Shown one piece after another: positions 19,892 to 38,940 of a DNA stretch of 64,000 bases. This stretch comes from Patescibacteria group bacterium (lineage in GTDB: Bacteria; Patescibacteriota; Microgenomatia; UBA8517): the NCBI GenBank assembly GCA_041742135.1, contig JBGSJG010000008.1, positions 232,964-296,963 of the forward strand, given 5' to 3'. Both the position numbers and the translations under genes were made by a program. Under the pieces are notes generated by a model. That model had not been told where the DNA came from. It worked only from the letters and a program-made list of their open reading frames with translations, and made no database searches. How positions within the stretch are numbered: position 1 is the first letter of the stretch; every line of letters begins with the position of its first letter.

Positions 19892-20279
19892 AATGTTCGT
19901 GAGCGGGTAACGATACGGTGCTCGAACCTATTTAGCCTGGATGACTATATCAAACCAGATCTAGTTTTACAATTTAACGTTCTTAAAGAGCAGATGAACA
20001 TTGATTCTTTTGCTACCTTTAACTAACCCGCTTGCAACATTTTACTTCTTCGATGCTTGTTTGTACAAGGTTATTACTGTTAATTAGTGTCATTTGCTTA
20101 CAAGACACTTCTGATATATTGTATAATACTTATTACCTTAATTAAAGAGATTTCTTAATTGTAGGAATTATCTAGCCTGTCCCTTGAGGATTCTGATCTC
20201 GCAAAAAAGATTAAGTAGAGTTATAGTTCAAGCAACTAATATGAGTAGTCCAAGTAAAAAGAAAAATCCACAATCTAAA

Positions 20280-20546
20280 ATGACTGTTTTTGGGACCGCG
20301 CCAGTAAGTTCCAAAGGGCAGATTGTTATTCCGGCTAAACTACGAAAAGCACAAGACATAAAGGCTGGAGATACTCTTATTTTTACAGGTAATCCTGACG
20401 CTGGCCACTTCCATGTGCTCAGTGCAAATTCTTTCAAGGGCTTTACCGAAGACTTAAATAATCTTATTTTCAACGGAAATCAAAAGTTATCCGGCGAGCA
20501 AAAGAAGAGCGAAAAAGCTTCATCGAAACAAAAATCGAAAAGCTAA
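20280..20546 (+). CDS. AbrB/MazE/SpoVT-type DNA-binding protein at the left edge of the phage-like module; the ORF is open from 20184
   Basis: SSKGQIVIPAKLRKAQDIKAGDTL swapped-hairpin motif. Confidence 0.45.
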   Translation: MTVFGTAPVSSKGQIVIPAKLRKAQDIKAGDTLIFTGNPDAGHFHVLSANSFKGFTEDLNNLIFNGNQKLSGEQKKSEKASSKQKSKS

Positions 20547-20774
20547 ATCGACCAATATAGTGGCGACAGCTACTGCCACACTGACTTTCACTGCAATTGT
20601 ATTTACTTTGATTTTTAGATCATTTACGTCGTCTTGGATATGATGGAGATGGTTGTCTTTTATCTCTTTTAATTCCTTCCCAACAAACTTAAAGCCACCA
20701 TCCACCCGTTCTTCGAGTTTGGCTACTCGTTCATGCATCTGTACTGTATTTTCGTTAGCTTTTTGCATAGACAT
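20520..20774 (-). CDS. XhlA-like lysis-associated protein (coiled coil plus C-terminal TM)
   Basis: Architecture and its position next to the holin and endolysin. Confidence 0.35.
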   Translation of the reverse strand: MSMQKANENTVQMHERVAKLEERVDGGFKFVGKELKEIKDNHLHHIQDDVNDLKIKVNTIAVKVSVAVAVATILVDLAFRFLFR

Positions 20775-21046
20775 TAAAATGGTAGTTTGTCGATTGTGCT
20801 GTCCTTATCTTCAGTTCCAAAGGTGTCACGCAGTAATTTGCCGACAGAGTTAATTCCAGCAATTCCCCCTGATAAAAAGAATGGAAGGACAAGGCTGTTG
20901 AGAAATTTATCCCAATTTGTCAGTGCCTCGGGTTGTGCATTAACTAGCACCATAGAGCCGGTAAATAGAAATGCTGAAAGAAAGATGCGACCGAATCGCC
21001 ACAAGACTTTTTTCCATTCTGGATATTCATTGTTCATACTGATCAC
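20774..21046 (-). CDS. holin-like two-TM protein
   Basis: Size, two TM helices, adjacency to the endolysin. Confidence 0.4.
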   Translation of the reverse strand: MISMNNEYPEWKKVLWRFGRIFLSAFLFTGSMVLVNAQPEALTNWDKFLNSLVLPFFLSGGIAGINSVGKLLRDTFGTEDKDSTIDKLPF

Positions 21047-22109
21047 CTCCTTTATTCCTTATTAATGTTCCTAAATATTGAAATGCGAGAGAAAAAATAA
21101 TTTGCGGTGTTGGCTGAAGCGGTAGTTTGTCTTTTTGGCAGGTTTCAAACTTACTTTTAAATTCCTGAGCTTCGTTTAACGCTCGACCCTTGGCTTTATT
21201 TACCTCATCAAGCTCGTCTTCCAGTACCCCTATGCGAGCCTGAGCCAACGGTAGGGCATCTGAACCGTTTTTGAGCTGCTTATTTAGAGCGTCAATTAGG
21301 GATTTATAGTACTTTTCTTTATCTAGCAGTGACTTTTCCAGCCTGCTTACATGCTCAACCCTGTTTTCAATTTCCTGGTTAGCCTTGTCCAATTCTGATT
21401 GTTTATCATTTAGCTTGTTAGATAGGTCAGTTTCACGACTTTTATACCCTCCGATAACACTTTTAATTCTGTCACTGGGGGTAGTATTGGAGTCGTCATT
21501 TATCTCAAGTATCTTTAATGCTTCTGGCCACTTTGTAGCTGAGGCGACAATTTGTTCATATTTAATTCGCCATTCTGGAGTGTTCGGGATCAAACATCCT
21601 TCAGGGGTTGAAGTTGTACCTTTTTCTTTTTTGTATTTTCTCAATTCATCAAAAAACTCTTGAGGGTTGATGGCACCAAAATAACCATTGCTATAGTTGT
21701 CGCTGACAAACTTTCCATTTTGTAGCTGCCCACGCTTTACAGTGAGGTGAAGGTGACTCCCTGTGCTGTTGCCAGTGTTGTCACTGACAGCCATCTCATC
21801 GCCTTCATTTTTGTTTTCAAAATGCTCGATTGACTTACAGTGAGCGTATGTGAGCTTATAAGTGTTATAAAGCCGAACAATGACTTCAAAGTACAACCCA
21901 AAACCGTCGTTACCTTCATTGCCTTGGGCATAAAACTGTGACTTCCAGGAGGAAAAAATATATCTAAAACCTTGAGGAGTATCTGGAAACTTGGTTTTTA
22001 AATCCCAGCCATTATGCCCTTTAAGTCCAAAACGGGCATAGGCTTCTGGATTTCCTCCAAATCCTTGAGTAAGTTCAAATGGTTCTATTGGTCGAATAAT
22101 GTCAGACAT
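21027..22109 (-). CDS. M23 (LytM) peptidase-domain endolysin with C-terminal coiled-coil region
   Basis: GHNGWDL (HxxxD) and GNSTGSHLHLTV (HxH). Confidence 0.75.
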   Translation of the reverse strand: MSDIIRPIEPFELTQGFGGNPEAYARFGLKGHNGWDLKTKFPDTPQGFRYIFSSWKSQFYAQGNEGNDGFGLYFEVIVRLYNTYKLTYAHCKSIEHFENKNEGDEMAVSDNTGNSTGSHLHLTVKRGQLQNGKFVSDNYSNGYFGAINPQEFFDELRKYKKEKGTTSTPEGCLIPNTPEWRIKYEQIVASATKWPEALKILEINDDSNTTPSDRIKSVIGGYKSRETDLSNKLNDKQSELDKANQEIENRVEHVSRLEKSLLDKEKYYKSLIDALNKQLKNGSDALPLAQARIGVLEDELDEVNKAKGRALNEAQEFKSKFETCQKDKLPLQPTPQIIFSLAFQYLGTLIRNKGGDQYEQ

Positions 22110-22113
22110 ATGG

Positions 22114-25100
22114 TTATCGGTAAATCAAACTCTTTATACTTTGATTGTCCGTGGAACCTGGCGTTTGTTTCAATGGATTAAGTGTTGATCCCTGTCCATT
22201 ACTTTCACCATCTTGGGGAACTCCACCAGGAAGGGTTGTCTTTAGTAAACGCTGCAAGTCCGTTGCGCTAAAAGTAACACTGCTCTGGAATAAAGCGGCT
22301 TCTTTTGGGTCATCTTTCATTAACAGCGGAACCACTTGGGGGATGAGTTTTTCGGCTTCTTCGTTCCAACGCAAAGCCATCTGTTGAGCGCCTTGAAGGT
22401 CGCCAGCCTCTATCAGCTTTTTCATTTGCAAACGAGTCGTATTGTATCCAACTTCAGTATCGTATTTAATGTCCCAGGCTATTCGTTGCTTCTCACCACC
22501 GTGGGTTCTGTAAAAACGATCCATTGTTAGCCCAAGAACATCTGCAGGGCTCAACAGCTCGCGTGCCAGGCTTCCTGTAAGCCCATAAATGGCGTGAGTA
22601 AGCTTCATCGGGCTTACACCAAGTGCACGGCCGATTGTGATGGCTAAATCAGGCGTTCTGCTGTCATATTGTTCCGATGGTGCTACTTTATCCAATCTTC
22701 TGGGAACAACGGGAAAGCCTGTAAAGAAGTTGGTATTGGTCGCTATCTCTAGCGGGGTGCGAATAATTGGAGGGAGAGCTCCTGAGAAAAATGCTTGTGC
22801 AGATAACTCGCCGTCACGAGTGAATGGAACCGGCGCGAGCTGGCTCATCCATTCCAAACCAAGTTTAAATAAGTTCTGTGGCTCCTGTTTTCTGACATAT
22901 TCAAAGGCATACATTAAGGGATTAAAGAAGATTGCTCCGATATCGCCCTTTGGTATTTGAACAACTTTAGGCACACGGTTGCCTTCTTCGTCTTTGTCTT
23001 CACCGACAATAACGATGAAATAGGTGTCTTTTGCCCATTGAGGAATATCATCCCAGAGTTCTTCGTGGTTCATCACGTTATAAAAATAGGTTGCAATTCC
23101 AGGCAGGACTGTCAGTGCCATAGCCCGAGCAGCAGTTCGAACAGGATTATCTTTTAGCACTCGGCCGACATTTAGCAAACCCTGCCATCGAGCATTCACG
23201 AATGGGACCCACATATTGATCAAACGAGCTTCTACTCCAGATTTAGCAAAATCGACCGTGACATTTCGGGCTTCAAAGGCTGCCTCTAAAGGAGTAGCTC
23301 CTTTACTGATGGCTTTTTTGTATATTCCAAGTCGAGGAGCAAGTTCTATTGCCTCAGAAAAGTTACCAATCAGCTCAAACGGATTAATGACGGCTTTGGT
23401 TCTCTCCATCCATTTTGGACGAAATAATTGTTCCGATGCTGTTGCCAATCCCTTGCTGGATTCGATGTAACCACCGTACCCGCCTTGATTTCTCATAAAT
23501 TCGTCATAGGCTTTGGATTCCCATTTAAATGCTGAGCGGAACCCATCTTTAAATCCTGAAAGCCAAACAGCAGGATTGAAGCCATACTTTGATACTAGTG
23601 TGGCTGTTTGATAGTCACGAACGGCATTAGATAGGGTGAACGGGAAATAGAGCGTTGTAGTTCCTGCTTTAAATGCTTTTGAAGATAGCATGACTAGCTT
23701 GCCCATCAAGCCAGCTTGAGCTGGACTCATGGCATGCATTGCTTCCGATAAATCTTTTGGCACCGCCCAACGTGTAACTTTGCCGCCAATAAAAACGCTG
23801 ACAGACTCCCATTCCTGCGGAGCATTTTCTCCTTCGGGTAAATATCGTATTAAACCTCTGGTAGCATCAGGATGTGTTTTCCTTAAATCAACGAGTTTAA
23901 GTGCAACCTTGTTTCTCTCCACCAGACTTACAGCTTTTGTTAGATTATCGATAATTGAAATAAATGGATCACGGATGATTTTGTCAGTTCCCTCCAAAGC
24001 GCTAACTACTCCTTGTTTGCTAACAGAAAACGTTTCTGAGCCGATGACCATTTTATCGGCTTCTTCCAGGGTGGGAATAAATTCTAAAACATGGAATGGT
24101 AGCCAATTTTTATTCTTTTCTACAACGGCATTAAAGGCTTTGTTGCTCAAAATACCAACATCTCTCATCGGCTCTAAAATTGCCTTAATCGCCCAATTCT
24201 GCATACCGTTACCAACTTGTTCAAACGTCTGGAAAGACTTATCACCCACCTTATTTTTCAATTCTTTAAGAGCTTCTTCTGCTGTGTGTTGAGTCACTCC
24301 AAGAGGGTTTTCGATTCCTCTTGCAGCTCTTTCTGAGGTTCTTTGCGCCAAAATATAGCGGGTAAAGTCTGCCCTCATTTTTCTCACTGGCTGGATGATT
24401 CCGTAGAGATCTCGAAAGTTACCTTCCACGATGCCAAAGCGACCGGCATACATTCTGGCTCCTACATACGGACTCGAGTTTATATCGATGGGTTTTCCTT
24501 GGAGTTTGCTCACTTTGTTTTCAAACTCACGAATAGGAGCGAATCGATCAGTAAAAAGACGGGGAAAGACTTCCATTGCCTTTTTTGCTTTATCTAGCAA
24601 ATTGGCAGCTGGTGACAATTTACCAACCATAGCATCAATTTGTTTTAAAGCGCTTCCGTCAGGTGGTGGGCTATCTGATCCGATAGGAATTTCTTGAGGA
24701 GGTCTGGGTGGAGTGCCGGGTGGTGCTGATACAAGCTCATCAGCTCTTTGAGTCTCTGGGGCAACAACGTTCCCATTTCTTCGTTCCTGGAATACCGGCT
24801 CATTGGAAACTTCCTTAGGATCAGGGGCACGCTCAGCTTGCTGCAACTCAACTTCTTCCGATTTTTTATATTTTTCTCTGATTTCGGCTGCTTTTACTGC
24901 GACTTTCTCATCTTTAGATAACTTTTCCATTAGACCTAAAGCTTCAGCGTCTTGAGGTTGATTTGTTACTGAATTAATAGTCGGTGTTTGATCTCTGAAA
25001 GCTTTATCGTATCCACGGCGAAAAGTTTCCAGAGACCCTTCTTTGTCAGAGTAAACCTTGGTTACTCTTACGTCTTTGGGGTTGAGGGCAACCAATAAAT

Positions 25101-27126
25101 CAGCTTCACCGGCCGCTTTAAGAACTACGGAGTCATATCCCGCTTTTCTGAGAGCAGCATCTACCAACAATCTTGCTGTTTTATCTTTTATATAGGTGTC
25201 TATACTCTGATCAAGGTTGGTTTTACCAAGTACTTTATGTATAAACTTGCCCCATTCACCAGCGCCAAAACCCATAAACTTCTGTGGCAGGTCAATAATG
25301 AATGGCTTCTTTGGTGTAAATTCAGTCTCAATGATTGCCAAGTTTGCGCCCATTCCAGATGGATCAGCACGTTTACCATAAAAAAGAGCACCAGACATCG
25401 CACCTTTATTTCCTGGTTGTAAATAAACCCCTTCGCCATATTTTCTTCCGCCAGAGGCACTAAAAGTCTCGGCTTCTGGAACTTTGAATCCAGTTTTTTG
25501 AATGATGTCTGCAATTGCTCTGGTGGTACCGTGATAAGAAATTACTGGTTTGTTTGGCACAATATCACCGGCTTGTTTTGCTAAAGCCAAACCTCGCTCA
25601 TAGCCCTCCTGAAGTATCTGCTTCCCCGATTCAATGCTGGAATATCTTTTCTTTATCCATTCAGGGATACGTTCAAATGTTTCATCAATTGTTTGTCGCA
25701 ATTCTGGCTGAGTTGTTTGCTTACTTGTTGAAGCTGCAGGTTTGGAAGGTGTGACGTCTATCTTGTTTTCCATGGCCACCGTCACTAAGTCGGCATCAGT
25801 CAATTCAGCAACTTTACCTAATCTGGTTTTTGCACTTTGACCGCCAAGACTGGTAACGATTTCATTTCTCTGGGCATCATTTAATGTGGCTCTAATGGAT
25901 AACCCTGCAGGCATATTTCTGACTGCTCGCACCACAATTGCACGCTTATTCGGGACATCTCTCCAAAGTTGGTAGTACAGATCCTGAAACTCCTGTCTGA
26001 ATGTCTTACCTGTATATCCCGTTGGATTACTTACCTTTGATAAAAACTCGTAGGCACGATTGGCAGTATTCCATGCTTGATTAAACTGTCCCATCTCTTG
26101 AGGAGTTTGCTTGGCTTGAGCTGGAAATTGCTTGGTAATATTAACCACCTTGCTTTTCCAAGCTTGTTTGATTTCTAGAGCGGTAGCTTTTTCATTAACT
26201 CCCAAGTATTCCAACGCTTGATTCTTGGTAATTTTTAACTGCTCGCCGGCTATTTTTTCAATTTGTTTTTCAGCAGCTGATTTGTTTGGAAGATATTTAG
26301 CTACGGCGAAATTAAGCGAATGTAATCCCATCATTGCAGCTGTATTTTTGAGAGCGTCCTCACTCGATTCACCCTTTATAAGCGAAGTTACATAAGTGGC
26401 TGGTCCGATAATGGCGGAGGATTTTATAAACGAGGGCTTCATTCCGGCAATGGAAAACGCACCTCCAAGAGCAAAATCGCTTACAAAATCTTTTGAACGT
26501 TGCTGTGCATCTTTGTGCGCTTCTTCTTTCTGTAGTTGAGTTAACCCTGCGAATGTCAGCCCATTTGAGAGAACACTAAAAGTTTTCGGAGCAATTGTTG
26601 CTACTCTACCTAAAAGAGGCACTCCTTTAAGGGCACCTTGCACCAGTCCGCCTCCAACTACAAAGGTACCAATGGTTCCCAAGACGTTAAACTCAACCTC
26701 AGTCATTTTTCCGGCCATTTCTTCAACGTCATTGGCGTATTTGATTTCCGGATCCCACCAGCCAAAAGTTAGTGCTTGTGCCAATCCATCTCCGGCACCC
26801 TTGAGTGCACCAATTGTTGCTTTAGGAAGGCGTTCAAGCACGTCTGTATCACGCGCCCCGAAACCAAGAGTTTGTGCCGTGGCTTCAACATAAATGTTCT
26901 TGAATGGCTTATATGACCCAACGGTTGGTCCTGGAATAGAGAACTCACTTTGTTCAGGTTTTAGCTTTTCTAGTGGGGTCAGAATATCTTCAATTTTCTG
27001 AGAGCCTATTTTCGCCACTTTACCAACAGTCTTTTGAGACTTACCAAACAAATCACCAATTGTCTGTCCGGTCGCTTGGATAGATGAGGTGATATTGGTT
27101 TTGAGATTACTTAGAAAGTTGTCCAT
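22114..27126 (-). CDS. giant (1670 aa) virion internal / ejection-type protein with a central ADP-ribosyltransferase-like segment
   Basis: N-terminal Gly-rich hydrophobic stretches. A central ISYHGTTR ... FSASGG ... IIETEF segment carries an R / S-x-S / E-x-E arrangement. The position matches the T7 core-protein slot. Confidence 0.55.
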   Translation of the reverse strand: MDNFLSNLKTNITSSIQATGQTIGDLFGKSQKTVGKVAKIGSQKIEDILTPLEKLKPEQSEFSIPGPTVGSYKPFKNIYVEATAQTLGFGARDTDVLERLPKATIGALKGAGDGLAQALTFGWWDPEIKYANDVEEMAGKMTEVEFNVLGTIGTFVVGGGLVQGALKGVPLLGRVATIAPKTFSVLSNGLTFAGLTQLQKEEAHKDAQQRSKDFVSDFALGGAFSIAGMKPSFIKSSAIIGPATYVTSLIKGESSEDALKNTAAMMGLHSLNFAVAKYLPNKSAAEKQIEKIAGEQLKITKNQALEYLGVNEKATALEIKQAWKSKVVNITKQFPAQAKQTPQEMGQFNQAWNTANRAYEFLSKVSNPTGYTGKTFRQEFQDLYYQLWRDVPNKRAIVVRAVRNMPAGLSIRATLNDAQRNEIVTSLGGQSAKTRLGKVAELTDADLVTVAMENKIDVTPSKPAASTSKQTTQPELRQTIDETFERIPEWIKKRYSSIESGKQILQEGYERGLALAKQAGDIVPNKPVISYHGTTRAIADIIQKTGFKVPEAETFSASGGRKYGEGVYLQPGNKGAMSGALFYGKRADPSGMGANLAIIETEFTPKKPFIIDLPQKFMGFGAGEWGKFIHKVLGKTNLDQSIDTYIKDKTARLLVDAALRKAGYDSVVLKAAGEADLLVALNPKDVRVTKVYSDKEGSLETFRRGYDKAFRDQTPTINSVTNQPQDAEALGLMEKLSKDEKVAVKAAEIREKYKKSEEVELQQAERAPDPKEVSNEPVFQERRNGNVVAPETQRADELVSAPPGTPPRPPQEIPIGSDSPPPDGSALKQIDAMVGKLSPAANLLDKAKKAMEVFPRLFTDRFAPIREFENKVSKLQGKPIDINSSPYVGARMYAGRFGIVEGNFRDLYGIIQPVRKMRADFTRYILAQRTSERAARGIENPLGVTQHTAEEALKELKNKVGDKSFQTFEQVGNGMQNWAIKAILEPMRDVGILSNKAFNAVVEKNKNWLPFHVLEFIPTLEEADKMVIGSETFSVSKQGVVSALEGTDKIIRDPFISIIDNLTKAVSLVERNKVALKLVDLRKTHPDATRGLIRYLPEGENAPQEWESVSVFIGGKVTRWAVPKDLSEAMHAMSPAQAGLMGKLVMLSSKAFKAGTTTLYFPFTLSNAVRDYQTATLVSKYGFNPAVWLSGFKDGFRSAFKWESKAYDEFMRNQGGYGGYIESSKGLATASEQLFRPKWMERTKAVINPFELIGNFSEAIELAPRLGIYKKAISKGATPLEAAFEARNVTVDFAKSGVEARLINMWVPFVNARWQGLLNVGRVLKDNPVRTAARAMALTVLPGIATYFYNVMNHEELWDDIPQWAKDTYFIVIVGEDKDEEGNRVPKVVQIPKGDIGAIFFNPLMYAFEYVRKQEPQNLFKLGLEWMSQLAPVPFTRDGELSAQAFFSGALPPIIRTPLEIATNTNFFTGFPVVPRRLDKVAPSEQYDSRTPDLAITIGRALGVSPMKLTHAIYGLTGSLARELLSPADVLGLTMDRFYRTHGGEKQRIAWDIKYDTEVGYNTTRLQMKKLIEAGDLQGAQQMALRWNEEAEKLIPQVVPLLMKDDPKEAALFQSSVTFSATDLQRLLKTTLPGGVPQDGESNGQGSTLNPLKQTPGSTDNQSIKSLIYR

Positions 27127-27131: not shown

Positions 27132-28202
27132 TTATACTCCAGGCGTAAATAAGCGTCTTAAGAAACCCATTACTCCAGGCTGATTTTTAAGTTGCCATTC
27201 TTCATCGATAATGCTTGATGCGTTTTTACCTTTATCTGTACTGACACTTGAAAGATTTGTCTTTAATTGATCCGGAGTAAAGCCTTGCTTCCAAGCGGAA
27301 CGTATTTCAGTACGTAGATCGCCTTCATTTACAGTTGTACCTGTTGATTCTTCAGAGGGTTGCTCGTATAAACTGGTAGTTCCCAATGATGGATCAAAGA
27401 AGCCTATGACGTTCCCAAAGGCATCTTTGACTTGCTGTTTGGCATAAGTACTGCTTGAACCACCGGCTTTTGACCGATTAGTCTGGGCTTCATAGAGCTT
27501 TAGTTCAAACTCTTTTTCCCAGCGATCCTCCTCTTTAGCTGCCGATAGCTCAGACGACCTTACTTGGTTGTAGGTGTTGACCAATCCACCCAAAAATTGA
27601 AGATCATAACGAAGATTGTTTAACTTAGCTTCCTTACCCTGGGTTTCCAAAGCAACCTTGCGAGTTATTTCACCAAGGCGGGCATTATAGTCCTCAGCTT
27701 TAGCATTTCTCTCCTGAATGAAATTGTTGATTTTTGCATTAGCTAGCCTTTGCACCTCACCCGACTCTCCGGTTATAGTGGCTGCCGAGTAACCGGGATT
27801 TTTTCTTATTTTGCTGACTGATTCATCACGAACATTTTTCTCAGCAGCAATGTCAGTGTCTAGAGTAGAGATAGTATCTTTGAGTGTGTCTAATTTTGCT
27901 TTGCTGTATTCCTCGTCATATCGCTTTGTTTGATATCCTTCCAAGTCACCAGAAAGATCCTGAGCTTGTTTATAGGTGTTCTGAAACTTAGTGTTGAGTG
28001 TTCCAATATCAAAACCCAGAATCTTATCTGAGCCACCGCCTAATTCAGAAAGTCCTGTACTAAGATTTGAAATAGATTGTTGCTTTGTTGGTTCATCACC
28101 ATCAGACCAGACATCTTTACCTGAAGAGTCAGTACCCCACCAGCGAAGAGCCTTGTCTTGATTGGGTTGCCAGTACCAGCCGCCGTATTGTTTGTCTGCC
28201 AT
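27132..28202 (-). CDS. hypothetical phage structural protein (coiled-coil rich)
   Basis: Synteny. Confidence 0.35.
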   Translation of the reverse strand: MADKQYGGWYWQPNQDKALRWWGTDSSGKDVWSDGDEPTKQQSISNLSTGLSELGGGSDKILGFDIGTLNTKFQNTYKQAQDLSGDLEGYQTKRYDEEYSKAKLDTLKDTISTLDTDIAAEKNVRDESVSKIRKNPGYSAATITGESGEVQRLANAKINNFIQERNAKAEDYNARLGEITRKVALETQGKEAKLNNLRYDLQFLGGLVNTYNQVRSSELSAAKEEDRWEKEFELKLYEAQTNRSKAGGSSSTYAKQQVKDAFGNVIGFFDPSLGTTSLYEQPSEESTGTTVNEGDLRTEIRSAWKQGFTPDQLKTNLSSVSTDKGKNASSIIDEEWQLKNQPGVMGFLRRLFTPGV

Positions 28203-29763: not shown

Positions 29764-29767
29764 AGTT

Positions 29768-31219: not shown

Positions 31220-31924
31220 TTATGACCATCTGATATTTTTGGCTTGGCCAACAAAGACGCTCGATGGTTCTTCGTCTTCACGGTCTTTTAGCTGTTGCAG
31301 TAGAGCATGTGCCTCAACAACTTCTTTTTCGCCATCATTTTTTCTACCTGGAGCTTTAGCTAGACAGGTACCTAGTGCCAGCTTGAGGACTGGCTCATCC
31401 ATTTCTTCTGGGGTAATCGGCTCGTCAGTTTCTTCAACCAGCCTTACCGGTCGGCGTTTATAAAACAGGTCAATCACTTTCTCTGCGGTATCGGCGACAG
31501 GATCTAAAAAGTATTGATCTCCAATAACGGCATAGACTTTTTGCCAGCGCCAGTCTGTATGGGTTGAAGGATGCACAACATCTAGAGAAGGGTGGAATGT
31601 GGGCGCAATCTTGTTGTCAGATTTTCGGCTCAGATACTGATTTTCCGTAGCCTTGTGGTACTCCTCACCGTCTAAGGAGAGAAAAACCATTCCGCCAGGC
31701 TTATAATCAAATGGTAAGAAGTAAGACTCTTTCCCAGATCCATCTGGGTTGAGTTCTGTTAACTGAGTAGCGTGTTTACTAAGAAACTTCCACCGCGCAA
31801 AGTTACAGGCACGAATAATTGCTTTATTGATCCAACGGTCTTTATCTGAATCCTTCCAGAACCCGCTTACTTTTGAGGCGGTAATTCTGGCGTTTAAGTC
31901 TTGTCTAAATTCTTGTAATTGCAT
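31220..31924 (-). CDS. hypothetical phage protein; the likely start is the internal Met (the ORF is open to 31999 but then overlaps the upstream gene by 64 nt)
   Basis: ORF plus synteny. Confidence 0.35.
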   Translation of the reverse strand: MQLQEFRQDLNARITASKVSGFWKDSDKDRWINKAIIRACNFARWKFLSKHATQLTELNPDGSGKESYFLPFDYKPGGMVFLSLDGEEYHKATENQYLSRKSDNKIAPTFHPSLDVVHPSTHTDWRWQKVYAVIGDQYFLDPVADTAEKVIDLFYKRRPVRLVEETDEPITPEEMDEPVLKLALGTCLAKAPGRKNDGEKEVVEAHALLQQLKDREDEEPSSVFVGQAKNIRWS

Positions 31925-31935
31925 AGTTTTGATTT

Positions 31936-33600
31936 CTACTGGAGATTTCCAGTTGCTCGATAATGTTGAACATATGGCAACAGAGCATTCCCGGGACAAT
32001 CCGTTGCCGATTCAGGCACTTCTCCGTGACCCAAAACACGTTCTTTTGGAATACTTCGCTCTTGTCTTAAGTTGTCTAAGACGGCCTGAAGAGTTGCTAG
32101 TTGTGAGGAGGTGGGAGTCTCATTGCTATGAAAATTTCCGCACAGAACTACGCCTAGGGACCGGTAATTCATCTTGTTACTGCCACAGTGAGCTCCAATA
32201 ACGTTGTCTGGTCTTCCTAGTATCAGGACTCCATCACCATCAAGTGCTCCAGCAATCCATTTGTGATAGCCAACATCATCCCATCCGTAGCCAATATGAG
32301 CTTTTTTAATAGTTTGAAAGTAGGTGTTATCTCTAGGTGTGGCAGAGTGGTGGACGATAATAAACTCTGGATAATTAGCTTTGTTGTAAACTTCAACGTC
32401 TTTGTCGAGTGTTGTCACTCTGCGTTCACCAGTCCAGGCAACTACTAGCTGAGGAGCGTATTTACCGGAGTCTTGGTTATAGTCCCAGATATACTTTGTA
32501 TTACCATGCCCTGAAAAATAGTTTTCTAAAACAATTCCCAATTTGCTTCCTGCCCAGCCGGGACGGTCAACAATCTCTTGGACAACTTCTTTCAGCTCTG
32601 GAGATTCATACACACTTTCCGCCGTCCAATGATCTCCTATCAGTACTCCTGCTTCTGCATGACCAGTATTCCATTGTACTTTCGCACTAGTTTTATTTCT
32701 CAGTGATGGCTTATTTGATCCGTCCGTGAGGAAGACTCCAGCATCATCTTCTGCTATGCCCTTAACGAGGATGTTGGCTTGGCCATTGTTTTGTATCGGG
32801 CTTGTGACCAATAGTTTTGCTGAAAGGATTTCTGCTCCCTGAGGTAAAGAAATAGGGCTAAAGATAAATCCTGCATCGTTGGCTGACTCATCTGGATCTA
32901 AGCTCCCATCATCGCCAAAGGTTGTCATGTTGTTCTGGAAGCCACTTGGATACCAAGTAGTTTTGTAATCTTCCTCGCCGTCCCGGTCGTCACCTTGAAT
33001 AAGACCAATTGTGATTTGTTCGTGCAAACCTTGAGGGAGATAGTAAATTTCCAGTTCCGCCTGATATCCATCACCTTTGCTTAAATCAAAACATGTTTTT
33101 GATTGATCTGAAGGGCTACCGTCGTCTTCAATAACAAACGCCAGTGCATTACCAGATTTCCAGCTAGATTGGGCTATAAGTTCTTCCACGACTAAGTTTA
33201 AATTAGGTGTTTGAACCCACTCGTGAACATTCCATTTTTTAATGATGTCCCAATCCACTGAATTAACGGTTTTGTTTCTTGTAGAAGGGCGGTTAGAACC
33301 ATCTGATTTGAATGGAGCAGGATCCGACTCTTTAATTCCTTTAATTTTTAAATTAACGGTAAAATCACTACCATCGCTGACTGCAGGACGCAGTCTTAAT
33401 CTGGCCAGAAAAATCTTTGAAAACTGAGGGATATCAATTCCTCTAAATCTGAAAGCGGCCGTTTGAGTGCCAGTAAAATTGCCAAAGGTTATAACGCTTG
33501 ATGAATTGCCATCTTTATTCCAAGACGAAGTACCAGCCTCTCTGCCGTCATCAGAGTTTTCTTGGGTTATTGCTTTGATCTTCAGTACTTGGTTTGTCAT
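31936..33600 (-). CDS. virion-associated peptidoglycan hydrolase: two copies of a ~125-aa repeat domain plus a C-terminal amidase_2/PGRP (T7-lysozyme-type) domain
   Basis: IIVHHSATP ... GYH ... ILGRPDNVIGAHCGSNKMNYRSLGVVLCGNF zinc-amidase motifs. The two internal repeats share the motifs DGS-RPSTRNKT ... VDWD. Confidence 0.65.
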   Translation of the reverse strand: MTNQVLKIKAITQENSDDGREAGTSSWNKDGNSSSVITFGNFTGTQTAAFRFRGIDIPQFSKIFLARLRLRPAVSDGSDFTVNLKIKGIKESDPAPFKSDGSNRPSTRNKTVNSVDWDIIKKWNVHEWVQTPNLNLVVEELIAQSSWKSGNALAFVIEDDGSPSDQSKTCFDLSKGDGYQAELEIYYLPQGLHEQITIGLIQGDDRDGEEDYKTTWYPSGFQNNMTTFGDDGSLDPDESANDAGFIFSPISLPQGAEILSAKLLVTSPIQNNGQANILVKGIAEDDAGVFLTDGSNKPSLRNKTSAKVQWNTGHAEAGVLIGDHWTAESVYESPELKEVVQEIVDRPGWAGSKLGIVLENYFSGHGNTKYIWDYNQDSGKYAPQLVVAWTGERRVTTLDKDVEVYNKANYPEFIIVHHSATPRDNTYFQTIKKAHIGYGWDDVGYHKWIAGALDGDGVLILGRPDNVIGAHCGSNKMNYRSLGVVLCGNFHSNETPTSSQLATLQAVLDNLRQERSIPKERVLGHGEVPESATDCPGNALLPYVQHYRATGNLQ

Positions 33601-33865
33601 AGTCTTTTTTGTTGTTTTTAGGTGGCACGTCTAGCTTGACGTTGATCCTGGCGTTAGCTTTAATTCCAACCAGTTTCATAATTCGTCTGATAGCTGCTAT
33701 GGTCGAGCCTTCCTTGCCAACTAATGCACCTGCATCTTGGTTATCTAAGCGAACAACTAACAAAACACCCATTTCGTCGACTTTGCGTTCAATCACGACA
33801 TTTTCTGGTTTGTCAGCGATTGCTTTGACTATTTGTTCTAGTAGAGCTACATCTTTTTCTTGCAT
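33551..33865 (-). CDS. KH-domain RNA-binding protein (KhpA/YlqC-like) inside the structural module
   Basis: ENVVIERKVDEMGVLLVVRLDNQDAGALVGKEGSTIAAIRRIMKLVG matches the KH_4/UPF0109 pattern. The 3' tail overlaps the next gene start by 50 nt. Confidence 0.55.
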   Translation of the reverse strand: MQEKDVALLEQIVKAIADKPENVVIERKVDEMGVLLVVRLDNQDAGALVGKEGSTIAAIRRIMKLVGIKANARINVKLDVPPKNNKKDYDKPSTEDQSNNPRKL

Positions 33866-33891
33866 GGCTTTTTCACCTCCTTTTCATTTAG

Positions 33892-34506
33892 TTAAGTAAC
33901 ATTTGGTTCGATCGTTAATACCAGTTCAGCTGCATTAGCAGCCCCACTGTTAAAATCCCAAATGTTTTCATACTGGTTTGCAGGACTGCTATCGTCTTCA
34001 ATCACTAGAGCAAGGGCTTTTCCGTCAAATTCAGCTTGTTGAATAAGCTCGTTGATGACTGAGGCAATATTGGGGGATTCATACCAGGTGTTTAGTACCC
34101 AATCTTCTGTAATATCCCAATCAACAGCCGCAGTTGTTTTACTTCTTGTTGACGGACGGTCACTTCCATCTCCAGCGAAAGGGCTGGGACTTGCTTCTAG
34201 GATGCCTTTGACTTTCAGAGTTGGTCTTTTGGTGGAATTAACGGCAGCCTTAACTCTCAATATGGCGCTGGTTACTTTGGCGTTATTGGGAATAAATGCT
34301 CGAAGAAATCTCAATGCTGTATCACAACTGCCGGTGTTATCGTTTCCGACACTTATTTGATTGGACCCAAAGCCATTGGGATACCAACTGGTATCGTAAT
34401 CTTCTTCACCATCATCATTGTTCCCCAAAACTTTAAGTTTTGTGACAATAATGCTGTCAAGCTTTGTATCTAGGTTTCCTGATTTTGCGCTATTAAATTT
34501 GGCCAT
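33892..34506 (-). CDS. protein consisting of a single copy of the same ~125-aa repeat domain found twice in the adjacent lysin
   Basis: GDGSDRPSTRSKTTAAVDWDITEDW ... ALALVIEDDSSP aligns with both repeats in 31936..33600. Confidence 0.5.
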   Translation of the reverse strand: MAKFNSAKSGNLDTKLDSIIVTKLKVLGNNDDGEEDYDTSWYPNGFGSNQISVGNDNTGSCDTALRFLRAFIPNNAKVTSAILRVKAAVNSTKRPTLKVKGILEASPSPFAGDGSDRPSTRSKTTAAVDWDITEDWVLNTWYESPNIASVINELIQQAEFDGKALALVIEDDSSPANQYENIWDFNSGAANAAELVLTIEPNVT

Positions 34507-34508
34507 AT

Positions 34509-34805
34509 TTATTTTTCAGTCACTATCTCCACAATTTGTCCTGCTACTGACGAGCTGACTACAATCTGGGTTGTATTTTTAATGCGCAAAGATAAGCTGT
34601 CACCAGGGTTATCCAGAATAAATGGCACATTTTTACTGTCGATATCATCGTGGGCGACTTTAATCTCCCCGGTGTTGTCGGCTTTGCTTTTAATAACAAC
34701 CTCGCAGCCTTCTCCAACTTTAATATCAGGTAGTGGATACCATTCATCCTGATTAGTCAGAGTTAGTTGAGCAGTTGTAAAGGTGGGTCTACTATTGCTG
34801 GACAT
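34509..34805 (-). CDS. hypothetical phage protein
   Basis: ORF in the operon. Confidence 0.3.
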   Translation of the reverse strand: MSSNSRPTFTTAQLTLTNQDEWYPLPDIKVGEGCEVVIKSKADNTGEIKVAHDDIDSKNVPFILDNPGDSLSLRIKNTTQIVVSSSVAGQIVEIVTEK

Positions 34806-34811
34806 ATCTTT

Positions 34812-35450
34812 TTAAAACTTTGGCTGTTCAGCCGTACTTCTAATTCCGGTTACAGATTTCTGGGTGTCAGCTCCCTCTGCAGCTCCTTTTATTTCAACTT
34901 CTTTTTTCTGCAGAGCTTTTTCTCTAGCTGCTACTTCTTTTTCTCTTTCCTCAAGAGTTCGGAATTTCTCCTGATAAATCTGATCAACGCTTTTACCACC
35001 TTTAAGATCTGTCGTTTGAACTTTCCTGAACACACTGCCGAAGTTAGGATGATTGTCTAAGTATTCGACTTCTTCCTGATCCTTAGTCTTGTAAACACCC
35101 TCATGGAATTGGATGTACTTTCCCCGGATAATTAGAACCTTGCCACCAACTTCTTTAAGGTAGGAAGGATTCATAACCAATTTCAGCTCTAAATAACGGG
35201 AAATATATACAATCTCTTTGGCTGGTTCAGCTTTTTGGGCAGTCCCTTTATTAGAAGGCTGTTCTGCGGATTGTTTGTCGGAATTGGATTCATTCGCAGG
35301 AGGTTCCTCGGCTCCAGAATCTTGAGCTTCGCTAATGCGTGCAATAAGCTCCTCTTTTTTGCCTGCTTTGGAAATGCCTAGTCGCTTAGCTTCATTCCAC
35401 AACTCAGCCATGTTCATGTCTTGTAATTGTTTTTCAGTTGTTTCTGTCAT
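34812..35450 (-). CDS. Rho_N/SAP-like N-terminal domain protein, phage-associated
   Basis: MAELWNEAKRLGISKAGKKEELIARI. Strong SD sequence GAGGTGA upstream. Confidence 0.4.
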   Translation of the reverse strand: MTETTEKQLQDMNMAELWNEAKRLGISKAGKKEELIARISEAQDSGAEEPPANESNSDKQSAEQPSNKGTAQKAEPAKEIVYISRYLELKLVMNPSYLKEVGGKVLIIRGKYIQFHEGVYKTKDQEEVEYLDNHPNFGSVFRKVQTTDLKGGKSVDQIYQEKFRTLEEREKEVAAREKALQKKEVEIKGAAEGADTQKSVTGIRSTAEQPKF

Positions 35451-35533: not shown

Positions 35534-35621
35534 TTAGGCGACTACACTGGGTAAGAAAGTGTGTAGTGACTTCCGGTTTTTAGTTATTTCTTTCATAAGT
35601 TTTTTCAGTAATTGATCGGCT

Positions 35622-36791
35622 TTAGAGTGAACCTACGCTCATAATGGCGTGGCGTTGCTCTTGTTCCATTTGCAGACCACATTCGGTCAGGTATTCGTCA
35701 ACTTGGCTGTCTTCACCGGGATTCTGACGGTTAGTCAAAAGCTTGGTGTCACGATTTGTCAGGTAGCGGTAGGTCAAGGCTTCCATGTCCAGACCAACGG
35801 CGTAATTACCATAAGTCGTTCCGATCAATAGTGGATGCTTGATGATATGCAGAGTTCCGTGTGGGGAGTCATAAGTCACGATTCGCAGTCCATAGGCTTT
35901 CGTGGGATTAACCACTTGGAGCTTCCCTTTAGCCCAACCGTTAACCATCGAAACAACTGCTGCAGATGCGAACAGATATTTCTCGGTGTTACCGTGAGCG
36001 AAGAGGCTTTCCAGCCATGAGTCAAATTCTGACTCGGTGTCAACGTTGGCAGATGCGTAAGTGGCAATCCTTCCTAGGATACCGTTGGTAAATCGTTTCG
36101 GATGAGTTCCAGATGTAACGATTCCTTTCTTACCAAACATAAAGGTTCGCTCGATATCGACATAGTGCTCGATACCTTTTTTGCGCCTTTGGTAATCAAA
36201 GTCGTTTTCTTTCACCCAACCTTGCGTGTTTCTGGCGGTTTCTGTGATACCTACCGGAGTTCGGAAAATCTGACAGTAGTTTGCTACTTCGGCAATAGTT
36301 GTCGACTTGATATCTCGCAAGCCGGCACCTTCTTCATTGGCATTACCAATGAGCCATACGTCTCCGACTGCAGAAGCGGCCGATCCTGTTGCCCCACCTA
36401 ACTCAGCCCCGACGGTAACCGTGTTAGCGTCTACGATTGCAGTGACTTGGAAGACCCATTTTTGGGCTGAAACCAAGATAATGTCGCCAACCTGTAAATA
36501 CTGGGATTGACCAGTAATGGTTAAGTTGCCTCCATCTGGATCAACTGTGCTGGATCCTGTAAGTTGTCGTTTACCAAATTCATCTTCAAACCATTTGAAT
36601 TCTGGATCAGAAGACTCTCTTTTTTTCAGAGCTTCGCCTTCGCCGGTTGCAGGATCTTTACCTGCATTCGTCAATATCGCTACTAGAGGATATCGATTGA
36701 CATCCAAAAGCGATACGACATCCGCCACGTCATACTTGCGTGTCGCGCCGACATTTCCTGTACCTCTGATTCCTGTTGCTGATGCTGGCAT
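35622..36791 (-). CDS. putative major capsid protein
   Basis: Size (389 aa), position after the scaffold-like gene, strong SD (GGAGGTGA), hairpin downstream. Confidence 0.5.
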   Translation of the reverse strand: MPASATGIRGTGNVGATRKYDVADVVSLLDVNRYPLVAILTNAGKDPATGEGEALKKRESSDPEFKWFEDEFGKRQLTGSSTVDPDGGNLTITGQSQYLQVGDIILVSAQKWVFQVTAIVDANTVTVGAELGGATGSAASAVGDVWLIGNANEEGAGLRDIKSTTIAEVANYCQIFRTPVGITETARNTQGWVKENDFDYQRRKKGIEHYVDIERTFMFGKKGIVTSGTHPKRFTNGILGRIATYASANVDTESEFDSWLESLFAHGNTEKYLFASAAVVSMVNGWAKGKLQVVNPTKAYGLRIVTYDSPHGTLHIIKHPLLIGTTYGNYAVGLDMEALTYRYLTNRDTKLLTNRQNPGEDSQVDEYLTECGLQMEQEQRHAIMSVGSL

Positions 36792-36828
36792 AATATTTTT
36801 TCACCTCCTTTCTTAATAACGTGGGCGG

Positions 36829-37641
36829 TTAGATCCCTAACCCTCCCAAGGGGCTTTTTGACCCGCTTCCGGCGAGAGCTTTCTGGATGCGTTTTGTTTC
36901 GGCATCCGAGCCATCGGGTTGAGTCGGAGCGCCCGCTCCACTCTCAACTTGAGCTTTTGCCTTTTTCAGGCGGCTCTTTTCTTGATCTGATAATTCTTCA
37001 GATTCACCTTCATTGTTGTCCTCGGGTTCGTCAACTTTGTGCTTACCGAGGAAAGCATCGACCTGCACACAAGCCTCTTTCAAAGAGACCGTAGTGCCTT
37101 TAGCACTGGCAGCATCGATAATTGTTTGGACCATCTTTCGATAGTCTTGATCATGTAGTGGATGATCCTTCTTGGCTTCTTCTATTTCTTTTTGAACAGC
37201 CGTGCGTACTTTTTCCTGAATTTCAATGGTTCTCTTTACACCCTCGTCAATACGGGTCAGAACCCATTTGGCAAAATCTGAAGGGGTCATCTTTTGCAGT
37301 TCTTCCGCACTCGGAAGATTTAGTTCTTTATTTTCGTCTTGATTTTCCTTGCCTTCATCGTCATCTGGTTTTTCGTTTTTCTCAAGAGATTCATATTCTT
37401 TGATAATTTCCTCACGGCTCTTGCCGTGCCATCGATCTTTATCTTTGGTGTCTTTCTTTTTGTCTTTTGATTTACTTTTGTCGTTCATAGATTTATCTTT
37501 TTTGTCAGGATCTGACTCATCCTTTGGTTCCTTTTCATCTGGATTTTCATTAGATTCATCCTCAGATGACTCATCATCAGGAGCATCCATTAAGGCTTTT
37601 AATTCTTCTTGTTCTTTTTGTTTCATTTGTTCTTCGTCCAT
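36829..37641 (-). CDS. putative scaffolding protein (very acidic, Lys/Glu/Asp-rich, coiled-coil)
   Basis: Composition and position before the capsid gene. Confidence 0.45.
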   Translation of the reverse strand: MDEEQMKQKEQEELKALMDAPDDESSEDESNENPDEKEPKDESDPDKKDKSMNDKSKSKDKKKDTKDKDRWHGKSREEIIKEYESLEKNEKPDDDEGKENQDENKELNLPSAEELQKMTPSDFAKWVLTRIDEGVKRTIEIQEKVRTAVQKEIEEAKKDHPLHDQDYRKMVQTIIDAASAKGTTVSLKEACVQVDAFLGKHKVDEPEDNNEGESEELSDQEKSRLKKAKAQVESGAGAPTQPDGSDAETKRIQKALAGSGSKSPLGGLGI

Positions 37642-37645
37642 AGGT

Positions 37646-37900
37646 TTATTCCTTCCTTAAGCTTTGAGCGGTTTCATCGCGCTCTTTTATAACGCCTGCT
37701 ACCATACTCAAAACTTTTTTGTAGGCCTTGATCAGTTGTTTATGCTCAAGGTCTTCTTCTACTGGGCAATCCAGTAGATCTTTGGTTTCAATTTCAATTT
37801 CTTTACTGACCAAGTTTTCGATAATGTGCCAGCCTTCTGTCTGGGTCATTTCCCAAACTGCTCGGCCTCGCTCTAGTTTTTCGTCAATATTGTTAGCCAT
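37646..37900 (-). CDS. hypothetical phage protein
   Basis: ORF. Confidence 0.3.
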   Translation of the reverse strand: MANNIDEKLERGRAVWEMTQTEGWHIIENLVSKEIEIETKDLLDCPVEEDLEHKQLIKAYKKVLSMVAGVIKERDETAQSLRKE

Positions 37901-37902
37901 TT

Positions 37903-38235
37903 TTATAAGTTGGGATTGGCCGGAGGAGTTTCTCCCTCTGGTTGTTCCTGGTCTTCTAACCCCATACTTTTTTTCTGTGCTCCAAGGCCGCCAAGTGGTC
38001 GAACTTCGTTTTCTTTCATGTCTTGCAGAGTGGCAATTAAGCTATCTAGCACTTCCAAAAAGGTTGACTGCCCCTGGAAATATGTATTTCTGGCCACCGT
38101 AAAGAGAGAATCAACTTTGTCCCAGGTCTGAGTCTCATTTGGCTGATTTGCCTTGTTTACCTCAGGAGCCGGCTCCTTGGCTTTTTGCTCTGGCATTGAT
38201 TCTTTTTTGTTTTGATTGGTTTGGTCAGGTTCCAT
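37903..38235 (-). CDS. hypothetical phage protein
   Basis: ORF. Confidence 0.3.
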   Translation of the reverse strand: MEPDQTNQNKKESMPEQKAKEPAPEVNKANQPNETQTWDKVDSLFTVARNTYFQGQSTFLEVLDSLIATLQDMKENEVRPLGGLGAQKKSMGLEDQEQPEGETPPANPNL

Positions 38236-38244
38236 ATTTTCTCC

Positions 38245-38643
38245 TTATGTAAATGGGAACGGCCGTTGGGCGTTCCATAGTAATGCTCCGACATAAACTT
38301 CGGCGGACGGCGATGAGCCACCTGCTATAGTTACAACTGCTCGGAGATATCTTTTCCTGCGGTCAATCTGCATTTTGTACCCGGTATCTGCTGTAACCGT
38401 TATTTCCTCACCACCCACAGCTACACTTACACCACTTGAAAAGTCCGAGGCATCAGATTCCTCAATTTTTACTTTGGTTGAGGTTTGGTCACCCAAATCA
38501 CCGATTGCGATATCTACAAGTCCTGAGTCATAAGCTGGTCTGTTGCTGAGATATGTATCAACGCCAGTTGCTTCAGTAGTTGCCGTGATTACACCAATTG
38601 CGAGGAGAGTAGCGGTGTGAATGTTTTGATTTAGTGTTTTCAT
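38245..38643 (-). CDS. hypothetical protein with N-terminal signal-peptide-like segment
   Basis: ORF. A conserved upstream motif is shared with the portal gene. Confidence 0.35.
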   Translation of the reverse strand: MKTLNQNIHTATLLAIGVITATTEATGVDTYLSNRPAYDSGLVDIAIGDLGDQTSTKVKIEESDASDFSSGVSVAVGGEEITVTADTGYKMQIDRRKRYLRAVVTIAGGSSPSAEVYVGALLWNAQRPFPFT

Positions 38644-38712
38644 ATTTACTTCAGTTGTTTAAAAGCCAAGCAAAAAGGGCTGCAACTTCTAAACACACGC
38701 TTAATTTGCGTA

Positions 38713-38742
38713 TATTCAGAAGCCACAGCCCCGATTGTTTCG
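38713..38742 (-). promoter_or_regulatory. conserved motif (minus-strand sense GCCTAACGAAaCaATCGGGGCTGTGG) upstream of 38245..38643; also present upstream of the portal gene
   Basis: 22/24 nt are identical between the two sites, both ~40-100 nt upstream of minus-strand phage gene starts. Confidence 0.4.
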
Positions 38743-38940
38743 TTAGGCTTTACTTCGATATGAGTCCAGTCTAGTGAAGGAGAATTAAAACAGCAATAAA
38801 CTTTCTGTCAGTTTGTGGTGATATTAAAAGTTGGAACATCTTAACTATTTATGAGCCCATTGTTTTAATTTTCACCAGATTGAGCTATAATCGGCACTAT
38901 ATTTTAGAATATCGAAATATATCAATGAGGCTTAGAAATT

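Follow-up and report, generated by a model that had tools for sequence, protein, structure and literature searches.

We analyzed a 64,000-nt window (the whole stretch of DNA under study), which is part of the 297,332-bp contig JBGSJG010000008.1 of a Patescibacteria group bacterium (NCBI assembly GCA_041742135.1) and carries a phage structural and lysis module with a distant portal gene. We consider it likely that this region is most of an intact, selectively maintained temperate prophage of an uncharacterized Patescibacteria phage family, and that the unusual distance of the portal reflects an insertion in a family-wide cargo slot, not decay or rearrangement; this confidence is a joint one, for the intact, cargo-bearing prophage as a whole. 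The window would represent the right-hand 44 kb of a temperate phage of the short-tailed type, integrated in the chromosome of a Patescibacteria host, probably one of a Microgenomates/Woesebacteria-like kind. The missing terminase and integrase genes are most likely a window-edge effect.

Intactness and identity of the structural genes

The open reading frames (ORFs) of the window were scanned against Pfam, PHROG, and NCBIfam, the full 64 kb was subjected to ORF listing, composition, and tRNA scans, and the window proteins, together with a query for the terminase large subunit (TerL), were mapped onto more than 150 fetched loci (L numbers). All 17 structural genes and the portal gene are full length, the same as their orthologues. 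Nei-Gojobori ratios of non-synonymous to synonymous substitution (dN/dS) against relatives are 0–0.11 for the 17 structural genes, among them 0.04 for the giant 1,670-amino-acid (aa) protein and 0.08 for the M23 peptidase; the portal has a ratio of 0.05. Between the window and L001, the capsid proteins do not differ at 95% nucleotide identity (100% aa identity; dN 0, dS 0.24), and 100% identical capsid proteins are found in 51 sample blocks from groundwater and other metagenomes.

A first-pass annotation, made without database searches, had described a T7-like structural and lysis module on the minus strand. Such a module is present and contiguous from ~19,920 to 38,822, and is borne out by matches to capsid, adaptor, tail, LPD38, Amidase_2, and M23 families. 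The structural homology of the capsid and portal proteins was recovered by hidden Markov model (HMM) search (PF17236, 2.5e-42, and PF23899, 4.8e-09, respectively). The capsid protein also matches the PHROG “major head protein” (2.4e-32), PDB entry 9in6 (5.6e-18), and, marginally, phage SU10 (7z45, 0.007); the HK97-fold major capsid protein expected of a temperate tailed phage (Caudoviricetes) is thus present. As had been proposed, a real portal gene lies 12 kb away, at 50,930–52,819, but it is not of the T7 gp8-like type. Among Pfam families it matches only SU10_portal and P22_portal, and it also matches the PHROG portal/connector families. The T7-like label has to be abandoned more generally, as the portal, capsid, and adaptor all match SU10-type families and the TerL of the family is of the GpA/lambda type. 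No tape-measure, tube, or sheath protein was matched, and the tail gene set is of the short-tailed type.

Distribution and gene order of the phage family

A pattern-limited scan of 185,579 species-representative genomes returned 38 loci with portal identities of 47–97%, most of them in records titled as Patescibacteria lineages. These loci lie on contigs of up to 1.1 Mb and include complete or near-complete chromosomes of 0.9–1.1 Mb, among them a complete 901-kb Woesebacteria genome. Portal homologues of 56–97% identity occur on contigs of up to 0.9 Mb assigned by their sources to Woese-, Levy-, Paceibacterota, Moranii-, and Parcubacteria. Many contigs of 33–39 kb in IMG/VR, and some of 53–62 kb, belong to the same phage family. 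The capsid family comprises 2,457 cluster representatives at E ≤ 1e-3, of which 314 remain at E ≤ 1e-30. Exact matches to the portal, HNH, QueC-like, and DUF2779 proteins were either absent or confined to Logan fragments of 1.9–3.9 kb, and SRR28170473 contains fragments with 100% identity. We found no near-identical DNA among deposited phages, and no circularity or terminal repeats in the relatives of 34.6, 54.3, 59.0, and 60.4 kb. The genomes of phages with 86–100% identical capsid proteins span ~41 kb to ~62 kb.

Some metagenome-assembled genome (MAG) records that bear these phages (L013, L014, L016–L019, L024, L031, L033, and L046) are titled Gammaproteobacteria, Pseudomonadales, Bdellovibrionales, Lentisphaerae, or Anaerolineaceae, and one of these carries the isolate name “HK-STAS-PATE-16.” Such titles probably reflect mislabelled or mis-binned records, not a broader host range.

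Gene order is strongly conserved. A single order starts with TerL and the portal, followed by u132/u110/u84, scaffold, capsid, SAP protein, h98, h204, KH protein, amidase protein, adaptor, t481, fiber, t81, t356, giant protein, and M23. This synteny is kept in more than 80 loci, and the order of the tail genes in more than 40. Within single loci the median gap from TerL to portal is 191 bp (n = 80). For the gap from portal to capsid the median is 2.5 kb and the maximum 8.3 kb (n = 81), as against 14.1 kb between portal stop and capsid start in the window. In distant relatives, TerL, portal, and capsid genes adjoin one another.

The early region is visible in a 58,954-bp relative. Pfam matches in its upstream part comprise a large serine recombinase of 543 aa, situated at the end of the contig, DUF3800, an ImmA/IrrE peptidase, an XRE repressor, C5 and ParB-N4/N6 methylases, a TerL of the GpA type, a sigma-70-like factor, and a YceG-like protein; a DNA polymerase was not among them. 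The TerL of relatives corresponds to PF05876, and the serine recombinase to PF00239, PF07508, and PF13408. Because the relatives carry an integrase and an ImmA/XRE switch, the family appears to be temperate and dependent on a serine integrase.

Taken together, the backbone of the family starts with a large serine integrase, a DUF3800/ImmA/XRE switch, Dcm and ParB-N4/N6 methylases, a possible small terminase subunit (TerS), and a GpA-type TerL. It continues with a sigma-like factor, YceG and unknown genes, the portal, small head genes, the scaffold, an SU10-type capsid, and the adaptor, and ends with the tail genes, the giant internal protein, the M23 hydrolase and holin, and an AbrB-like gene. 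In the sub-lineage to which the window belongs, variable cargo is carried in two slots. The first, upstream of the conserved portal leader, here holds a Type III restriction-modification (RM) system together with a MerR-HNH protein, the 803-aa membrane protein, and a DUF2779/HNH insert. The second, from no more than 10 bp past the portal stop to a conserved hairpin, here holds a 12.1-kb cassette of 14 genes with host-like GC content. A prophage of this kind is presumably inducible.

Location of the terminase and integrase genes

None of the scanned window ORFs has a domain typical of a terminase, DNA polymerase, or integrase, in agreement with the first-pass annotation. Two candidates for a concealed terminase were rejected. 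The ORF that runs off the right end of the window is a 555-aa accessory gene, and the 803-aa ORF adjoining the portal, at the position expected for TerL, has no HMM match and has multiple N-terminal transmembrane (TM) helices.

To place the window within a longer genome, a 54,262-bp IMG/VR relative was rebuilt from L091, L172, L054, and L154, whose overlaps are 99.96–100% identical and whose total length was matched exactly. From 64,000 down to 19,920, the window is colinear with positions 18,655 to 54,142 of this composite, except for the respective versions of the cargo between portal and head genes (island 2) and an insert specific to the window at 60,760–63,190. Positions 1–18,654 of the composite hold the integrase (15–1,646), the lysogeny switch, the methylases, TerL (9,290–10,870), and further backbone genes. 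In the composite, which is the closest complete relative, 16.4 kb separate TerL from the portal start (27,283), but the window reaches only 11.2 kb upstream of its portal; the lack of these genes is most likely due to where the window ends. Extrapolating from the composite, TerL would be expected at ~71.8–73.4 kb in window coordinates (~8–9 kb past the end) and the integrase at ~81.0–82.6 kb (~17–19 kb past the end). The prophage would then measure ~62.7 kb in all, of which ~44 kb (19,920–64,000) falls in the window.

At the left end, the prophage has a defined junction with the chromosome. Homology to phage contigs stops at 19,920, 29 bp past the stop (19,891) of an intact host P-type ATPase gene (blastn against L154 and L156, and the colinearity map), and the genes to the left are cellular (TyrRS, tRNA-His, DHODH, and P-type ATPase). 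The tRNA-His gene was ruled out as the attachment (att) site, given that sequence homologous to phages extends no farther left than 19,920 and that the integrase of the family is of the serine type. Serine integrases leave no long att repeats, and the search for att direct repeats suggested with the first-pass annotation is ill-suited for that reason.

Cargo between the portal and head genes

Homology to every relative breaks at 38,822 on the head side and at 50,920 on the portal side, 10 bp past the portal stop, whatever cargo the relative carries. The intervening island 2 (38,823–50,919; 12,097 bp) has a GC content of 0.364, compared with 0.429 for the backbone. The same slot holds other cargo in relatives: HEPN, VWA/CobT, AAA_5, and a diversity-generating retroelement (bAvd and reverse transcriptase) in some, a 1,404-aa HEAT protein with a methyltransferase in others, and in others again PAP2, DsrE, a P-type ATPase, LMWPc, and PadR. 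L015 has different slot-2 cargo although its portal is 97% identical, and in L014 a 91% identical portal and a 90% identical u132 flank an island of 9.2 kb. Relatives with 100% identical capsids (L001–L006, at ~5,900–7,340, and L012–L014) carry the bAvd and reverse transcriptase retroelement in this slot. The 14-kb distance between the portal and capsid genes would accordingly be explained by the insertion of a cargo cassette in slot 2. Of the three origins offered by the first-pass annotation, a permuted prophage with large cargo insertions comes closest: the insertions are real, but there is no permutation, as the order and strand of the family are kept.

The head-side edge of the slot is marked by a hairpin with a T-run. 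All 12 relatives examined retain it, among them distant ones and Woesebacteria and Daviesbacteria loci, with three compensatory pairs. It matched no Rfam family, the only hits being spurious ones to miRNA precursors. The hairpin may act as a terminator, serve as a target for antitermination, or form a leader structure at the slot edge, and it may insulate the late head operon from cargo transcription.

Accessory genes upstream of the portal

In most relatives, homology upstream of the portal ends at ~52,924–52,935. The phage-borne Type III pair of the window recurs at the same place in L171/L172, and the MerR-HNH protein is common to relatives; the DUF2779/HNH insert (60,760–63,190) is specific to the window. 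Other relatives carry different genes of the defense type here, such as those for an SNF2/PLD protein, an MmeI-like enzyme, or DUF4365. One abundant relative, whose portal occurs in 48 sample blocks, shares the block of MerR-HNH, Mod, Res, and the 803-aa protein. The 803-aa protein itself, which has no Pfam or PHROG match, is 94% identical in L023 (7,419–9,827; dN/dS 0.06), where the portal is only 74% identical. This difference implies that the accessory gene was recently exchanged, and that island genes may be swapped between diverged phages. To the right, the ~555-aa ORF in which the window ends adjoins the conserved backbone (F34 … TerL … integrase) in relatives.

Alternative explanations

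Several points weigh against an intact prophage. Neither excision nor particles are in evidence. On the window’s own contig, neither TerL nor the integrase was observed; a contig of 297,332 bp is not among the members listed for the TerL clusters (15 per cluster), and no att core could be defined. An element of ~62 kb would have one and a half times the length of the ~41-kb relative whose capsid protein is 86% identical. Finally, island 2 has the same GC content as the left host flank (0.364), which also fits host DNA in an immobile element.

The leading alternative is a defective remnant, which would have lost its terminase and integrase and received host DNA between portal and head genes when already dead. 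The lack of both genes in 64 kb, the host-like GC content of island 2, and the unconfirmed TerL on the same contig all fit such a remnant. We nevertheless regard it as unlikely, since the structural ORFs are full length with dN/dS of 0–0.11 and the capsid has dN = 0 at dS 0.24. Moreover, the same two slots are filled with other cargo in relative contigs of 54–60 kb that run from integrase to lysis genes, and the window ends inside an ORF that directly abuts the backbone in relatives. The degraded prophage considered in the first-pass annotation is disfavored by the same ORF lengths and ratios.

A domesticated phage-derived particle system, resembling a gene transfer agent (GTA) or a tailocin and kept by bacteria of the Candidate Phyla Radiation (CPR), had also been raised. 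High conservation of portal and capsid across CPR classes (57–100% aa identity), strong purifying selection, and the large non-phage cargo would be compatible with this, yet we judge it very unlikely. The relatives keep a large serine recombinase as integrase, a repressor/antirepressor (ImmA/XRE) switch, TerS/TerL, and lysis genes, whereas a GTA would lack integrase and repressor and occupy a fixed locus. The distribution is also sporadic (38 loci in the pattern-limited scan of 185,579 species genomes), the cargo and defense islands are highly variable, the flanks differ between genomes, and stand-alone viral contigs of 33–60 kb exist. That the portal stems from a second, unrelated prophage fragment lying on the same strand by chance, as the 12 kb of non-phage genes with different GC content between portal and head module might suggest, is highly improbable, because portal and head module have the same order and strand in every relative, including L014 and L171/L172, and the breakpoints of homology coincide with the portal stop and with the conserved leader of the head operon.

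Features of the window

Coordinates are collected in Table 1.

Table 1. Features of the 64-kb window, with strand, GC content, and the evidence for each assignment.
Feature	Position	Strand	GC	Evidence or remarks
Cellular genes: ABC ATPase, tyrosyl-tRNA synthetase (TyrRS), two NUDIX, radical-SAM/SPASM, DegT aminotransferase, tRNA-His	1–12.5 kb		0.364	
tRNA-His	12,538–12,612			tRNA scan
Dihydroorotate dehydrogenase (DHODH), PMT_2 glycosyltransferase, P-type ATPase	12.6–19.9 kb		0.427	
Virion and lysis module	19.9–38.8 kb	−	0.429	
Left prophage end (att region)	19,920–20,183			blastn vs L154 (54,262-bp IMG/VR contig), L156
AbrB/MazE-fold small protein, terminal phage gene	20,184–20,546	+		PF04014 1.3e-07; 84% aa in 54-kb relative
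Two small lysis-type genes, s84 and s90	20,520–21,046	−		Hydropathy scan
M23 peptidase, 360 aa, coiled coil; candidate endolysin/virion-associated hydrolase	21,027–22,109	−		
Giant LPD38 protein, 1,670 aa; candidate internal/ejected virion protein	22,114–27,126	−		PF18857 1.3e-24, phrog_9854 8e-65
Tail genes t356, t81, 443-aa tail-fiber-like protein, t481	27,132–31,213	−		PHROG tail-fiber 1e-19
Head-tail adaptor, 234 aa as called in relatives	31,220–31,924	−		PF24175 SU10_adaptor
554-aa Amidase_2 protein, KH-domain protein, h204, h98, SAP-domain protein	31,936–35,450	−		
Major capsid protein, SU10/HK97-fold type	35,622–36,791	−		PF17236 SU10_MCP 2.5e-42
Scaffold candidate (270 aa), u84, u110, u132	36,829–38,643	−		Position kept in all relatives; phrog_5707 for u132
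25-bp hairpin and T-run	38,681–38,727	−		38 nt before u132 start; slot-2 head-side edge
Fourteen metabolic genes (island 2): KsgA/Erm-like methyltransferase, BpsA-like aminopropyltransferase, AdoMet decarboxylase, FolE, QueD; GT2, HExxH peptidase-like, QueC-like, NodU-type carbamoyltransferase, QueE-like radical SAM; PIG-L/BshB-like deacetylase, two APH-fold kinases, NAD-dependent epimerase	38,823–50,919 (38.8–50.9 kb)	both	0.364	
Portal segment	50.9–52.9 kb	−	0.428	
Portal gene (629 aa from ATG 52,819) and ~115 bp conserved upstream sequence	50,930–52,935	−		PF23899 SU10_portal 4.8e-09
Accessory and defense genes	52.9–64.0 kb		0.379	
803-aa protein with N-terminal TM helices (TM803)	52,990–55,401	−		TM scan; present in 54-kb relative
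Type III restriction-modification pair, Res 768 aa and Mod 586 aa	55,423–59,486	−		PF04851, PF19778, PF01555
MerR-helix-turn-helix (HTH)/HNH protein, then DUF2779 protein, 83-aa ORF, HNH endonuclease	59,431–63,167	−		
5' part of ~555-aa ORF	63,258–64,000	+		79% nt identity to composite 18,655–19,447

The order of genes given by the first-pass annotation needs partial correction, in that the fiber precedes the giant protein and the amidase protein lies between the head and adaptor genes. The strong GGAGG Shine-Dalgarno sequences it reported precede the capsid gene, KH104, and t356. The adaptor was assigned through a precomputed Pfam match on 93–94% identical orthologues, not on the window protein. 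For t481, a role as nozzle is our guess; neither it nor t356 has a PDB sequence match.

Several proteins potentially act on the cell wall or membrane. The M23 peptidase matches PF01551 below the cut-off (5.9e-05) and the PHROG endopeptidase/endolysin families. The 84-aa s84, previously called XhlA-like, does have the coiled coil and C-terminal TM helix implied by that name in a hydropathy scan, but it has no HMM match, and the likeness is one of architecture only. In the same scan s90 has two moderately hydrophobic stretches, making it a holin candidate; neither s84 nor s90 matched Pfam or PHROG. The 554-aa protein consists of two h204-like repeats and an Amidase_2 domain and, because it is placed with the head-tail genes and outside the lysis cassette, may be a virion-associated wall hydrolase. 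The separate h204 protein (204 aa; 33,892–34,506) is paralogous to the tandem N-terminal repeats of this 554-aa protein (31,936–33,600), at 34–40% identity.

Outside the prophage, a step in GC content, from 0.364 to 0.427, falls precisely on tRNA-His. The segment from there to the prophage end (12,538–19,891), with DHODH, PMT_2, and P-type ATPase genes, has the GC content of the phage backbone, although homology to phage contigs does not extend into it; this segment may represent an older island adjoining the tRNA gene. The P-type ATPase gene lies directly outside the prophage end. P-type cation ATPases, 25–33% identical to that of the window, are also recurrent as cargo or neighbors of the phage family (composite 32,032–34,557; U34643 18,035–20,566; L035/L036/L038/L041).

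A biosynthetic cassette in island 2

The genes of island 2 were identified by Pfam and NCBIfam scans and PDB matches. The first-pass annotation had taken the intervening block to be entirely on the plus strand; in fact, five plus-strand genes are followed by six minus-strand and three plus-strand genes. Profile matches are clear for FolE (2.6e-60) and QueD (5.1e-37). The QueC-like and QueE-like proteins score below their NCBIfam cut-offs (88.6 vs. 150 and 87.5 vs. 206, respectively), as does the KsgA-like protein; the QueC-like protein retains the SGGxDS PP-loop and the Cys cluster. The BpsA-like protein matches PDB entry 5xnc (1.7e-24).

The same 14 genes, in the same order and with 45–85% aa identity, occur in L165 (4,009–15,986), a non-phage locus, by an HTH/Prim-Pol element. 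A core of 10 genes is found in L168 (6,765–15,463), in a chromosomal setting beside genes for EF-P, Lgt, LspA, and aconitase. This recurrence in other genomic contexts indicates that the cassette is a mobile unit captured here by the phage. Close relatives of the carbamoyltransferase were not found in JGI metagenome contigs, and no description of the cassette was found in the literature searched.

The FolE-QueD-QueE-QueC set brings to mind a 7-deazaguanine DNA-modification module with DpdA. Such a module is unsupported, because no TGT or DpdA gene was found in the scanned window ORFs, in the backbone of relatives, or beside the cassette in L165 and L168. We tentatively suggest, while considering it doubtful, that island 2 could be a phage-mobilized biosynthetic cluster for a 7-deazapurine conjugate. 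FolE, QueD, and the QueE-like and QueC-like proteins would build the deazapurine core, and the BpsA-like protein and AdoMet decarboxylase would provide aminopropyl or polyamine groups. Decoration of the core would fall to GT2, the carbamoyltransferase of the NodU type, the deacetylase of the PIG-L type, the kinases, and the epimerase, and the KsgA/Erm-like rRNA methyltransferase could give self-resistance. The chemistry in this scheme is drawn only from domain content and analogies to nucleoside and aminoglycoside clusters, and a decorated 7-deazapurine or polyamine compound as the product is speculation. In a variant, the cassette may serve a DpdA-independent modification of the phage’s own nucleic acid.

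Comparison with known phages

Among deposited phages, even the best matches are distant, namely Roseobacter phage CRP-810, Caulobacter phage Kuura, and Pseudomonas 119X-like podophages. CRP-810 has the best capsid match among 50,697 deposited phages, with 30% aa identity over 98% of the protein. A distance of ~10.5 kb separates its portal gene from the capsid gene downstream, which is followed by genes for internal virion proteins and a ~2,000-aa protein. Phages of this type are temperate with genomes of 52–68 kb, CRP-810 itself measuring 57.7 kb (PMC11288001). Because they show both features, the portal-capsid distance and a genome of ~60 kb are precedented in this capsid lineage. In contrast to the Patescibacteria family, where these were not seen in the backbone, CRP-810 has Prim-Pol and other replication genes; its tail-fiber and lysis genes, and no metabolic cassette, lie between portal and capsid. 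The hosts of this group are marine Proteobacteria, and sequence similarity is only distant.

Escherichia phage SU10 (Kuravirus) shares the Pfam families of capsid, portal, and adaptor, but direct identity to the window is marginal (the 7z45 match noted above). SU10 is a virulent 77-kb coliphage, whereas the Patescibacteria family appears temperate and encodes a serine integrase along with a TerL of the GpA type. The T7-like phages (Autographiviridae) resemble the window in the broad layout of portal, scaffold, capsid, adaptor/nozzle-type tail, large internal protein, and lysis genes. They differ from the Patescibacteria family in that its TerL is of the lambda GpA type and its predicted lifestyle temperate. 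No single-subunit RNA polymerase or family-A DNA polymerase was found in the window ORFs or in the scanned backbone ORFs of relatives, and no T7 gp8-type portal or T7-type terminase was matched.

Both Patescibacteria prophages and cargo hotspots in temperate phages are established concepts. Hotspots for defense cargo are known from temperate phages and their satellites, such as P2/P4 (PMC13586616). Like prophage “morons,” they have fixed backbone positions at which defense and accessory genes are rapidly exchanged. The family described here belongs to another phage family and host phylum, one of its slots lies between portal and head genes, and slot 2 of the window holds a 14-gene biosynthetic cassette, not a defense system. 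Prophages in groundwater Patescibacteria MAGs, which have been reported as ~44-kb tailed elements in Paceibacteria with a C5-cytosine methylase and a glycosyltransferase as auxiliary metabolic genes (“AMGs”), share habitat and host phylum; these papers do not give a family-level architecture, cargo slots, or the cassette (PMC12455944; PMC12911398).

Implications

The window illustrates how a fixed segment can mimic gene loss, and how an apparent anomaly can turn out to be ordinary biology. It helps to define a backbone and two cargo slots for an uncultured, apparently temperate phage family with a wide occurrence in Patescibacteria. In a Patescibacteria genome of roughly 1 Mb, a 62-kb prophage would account for several per cent of the DNA. 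RM systems and diversity-generating retroelements travel with phages of this family, as do metal-transport genes and, in the window, a complete biosynthetic cassette of 14 genes; the recipients of such cargo are hosts with very limited metabolism. The cassette is a concrete target for functional work and the main lead of this analysis. If the conjugate scheme were true, temperate phages would ferry a natural-product pathway, possibly for an antibiotic, between genome-reduced CPR bacteria.

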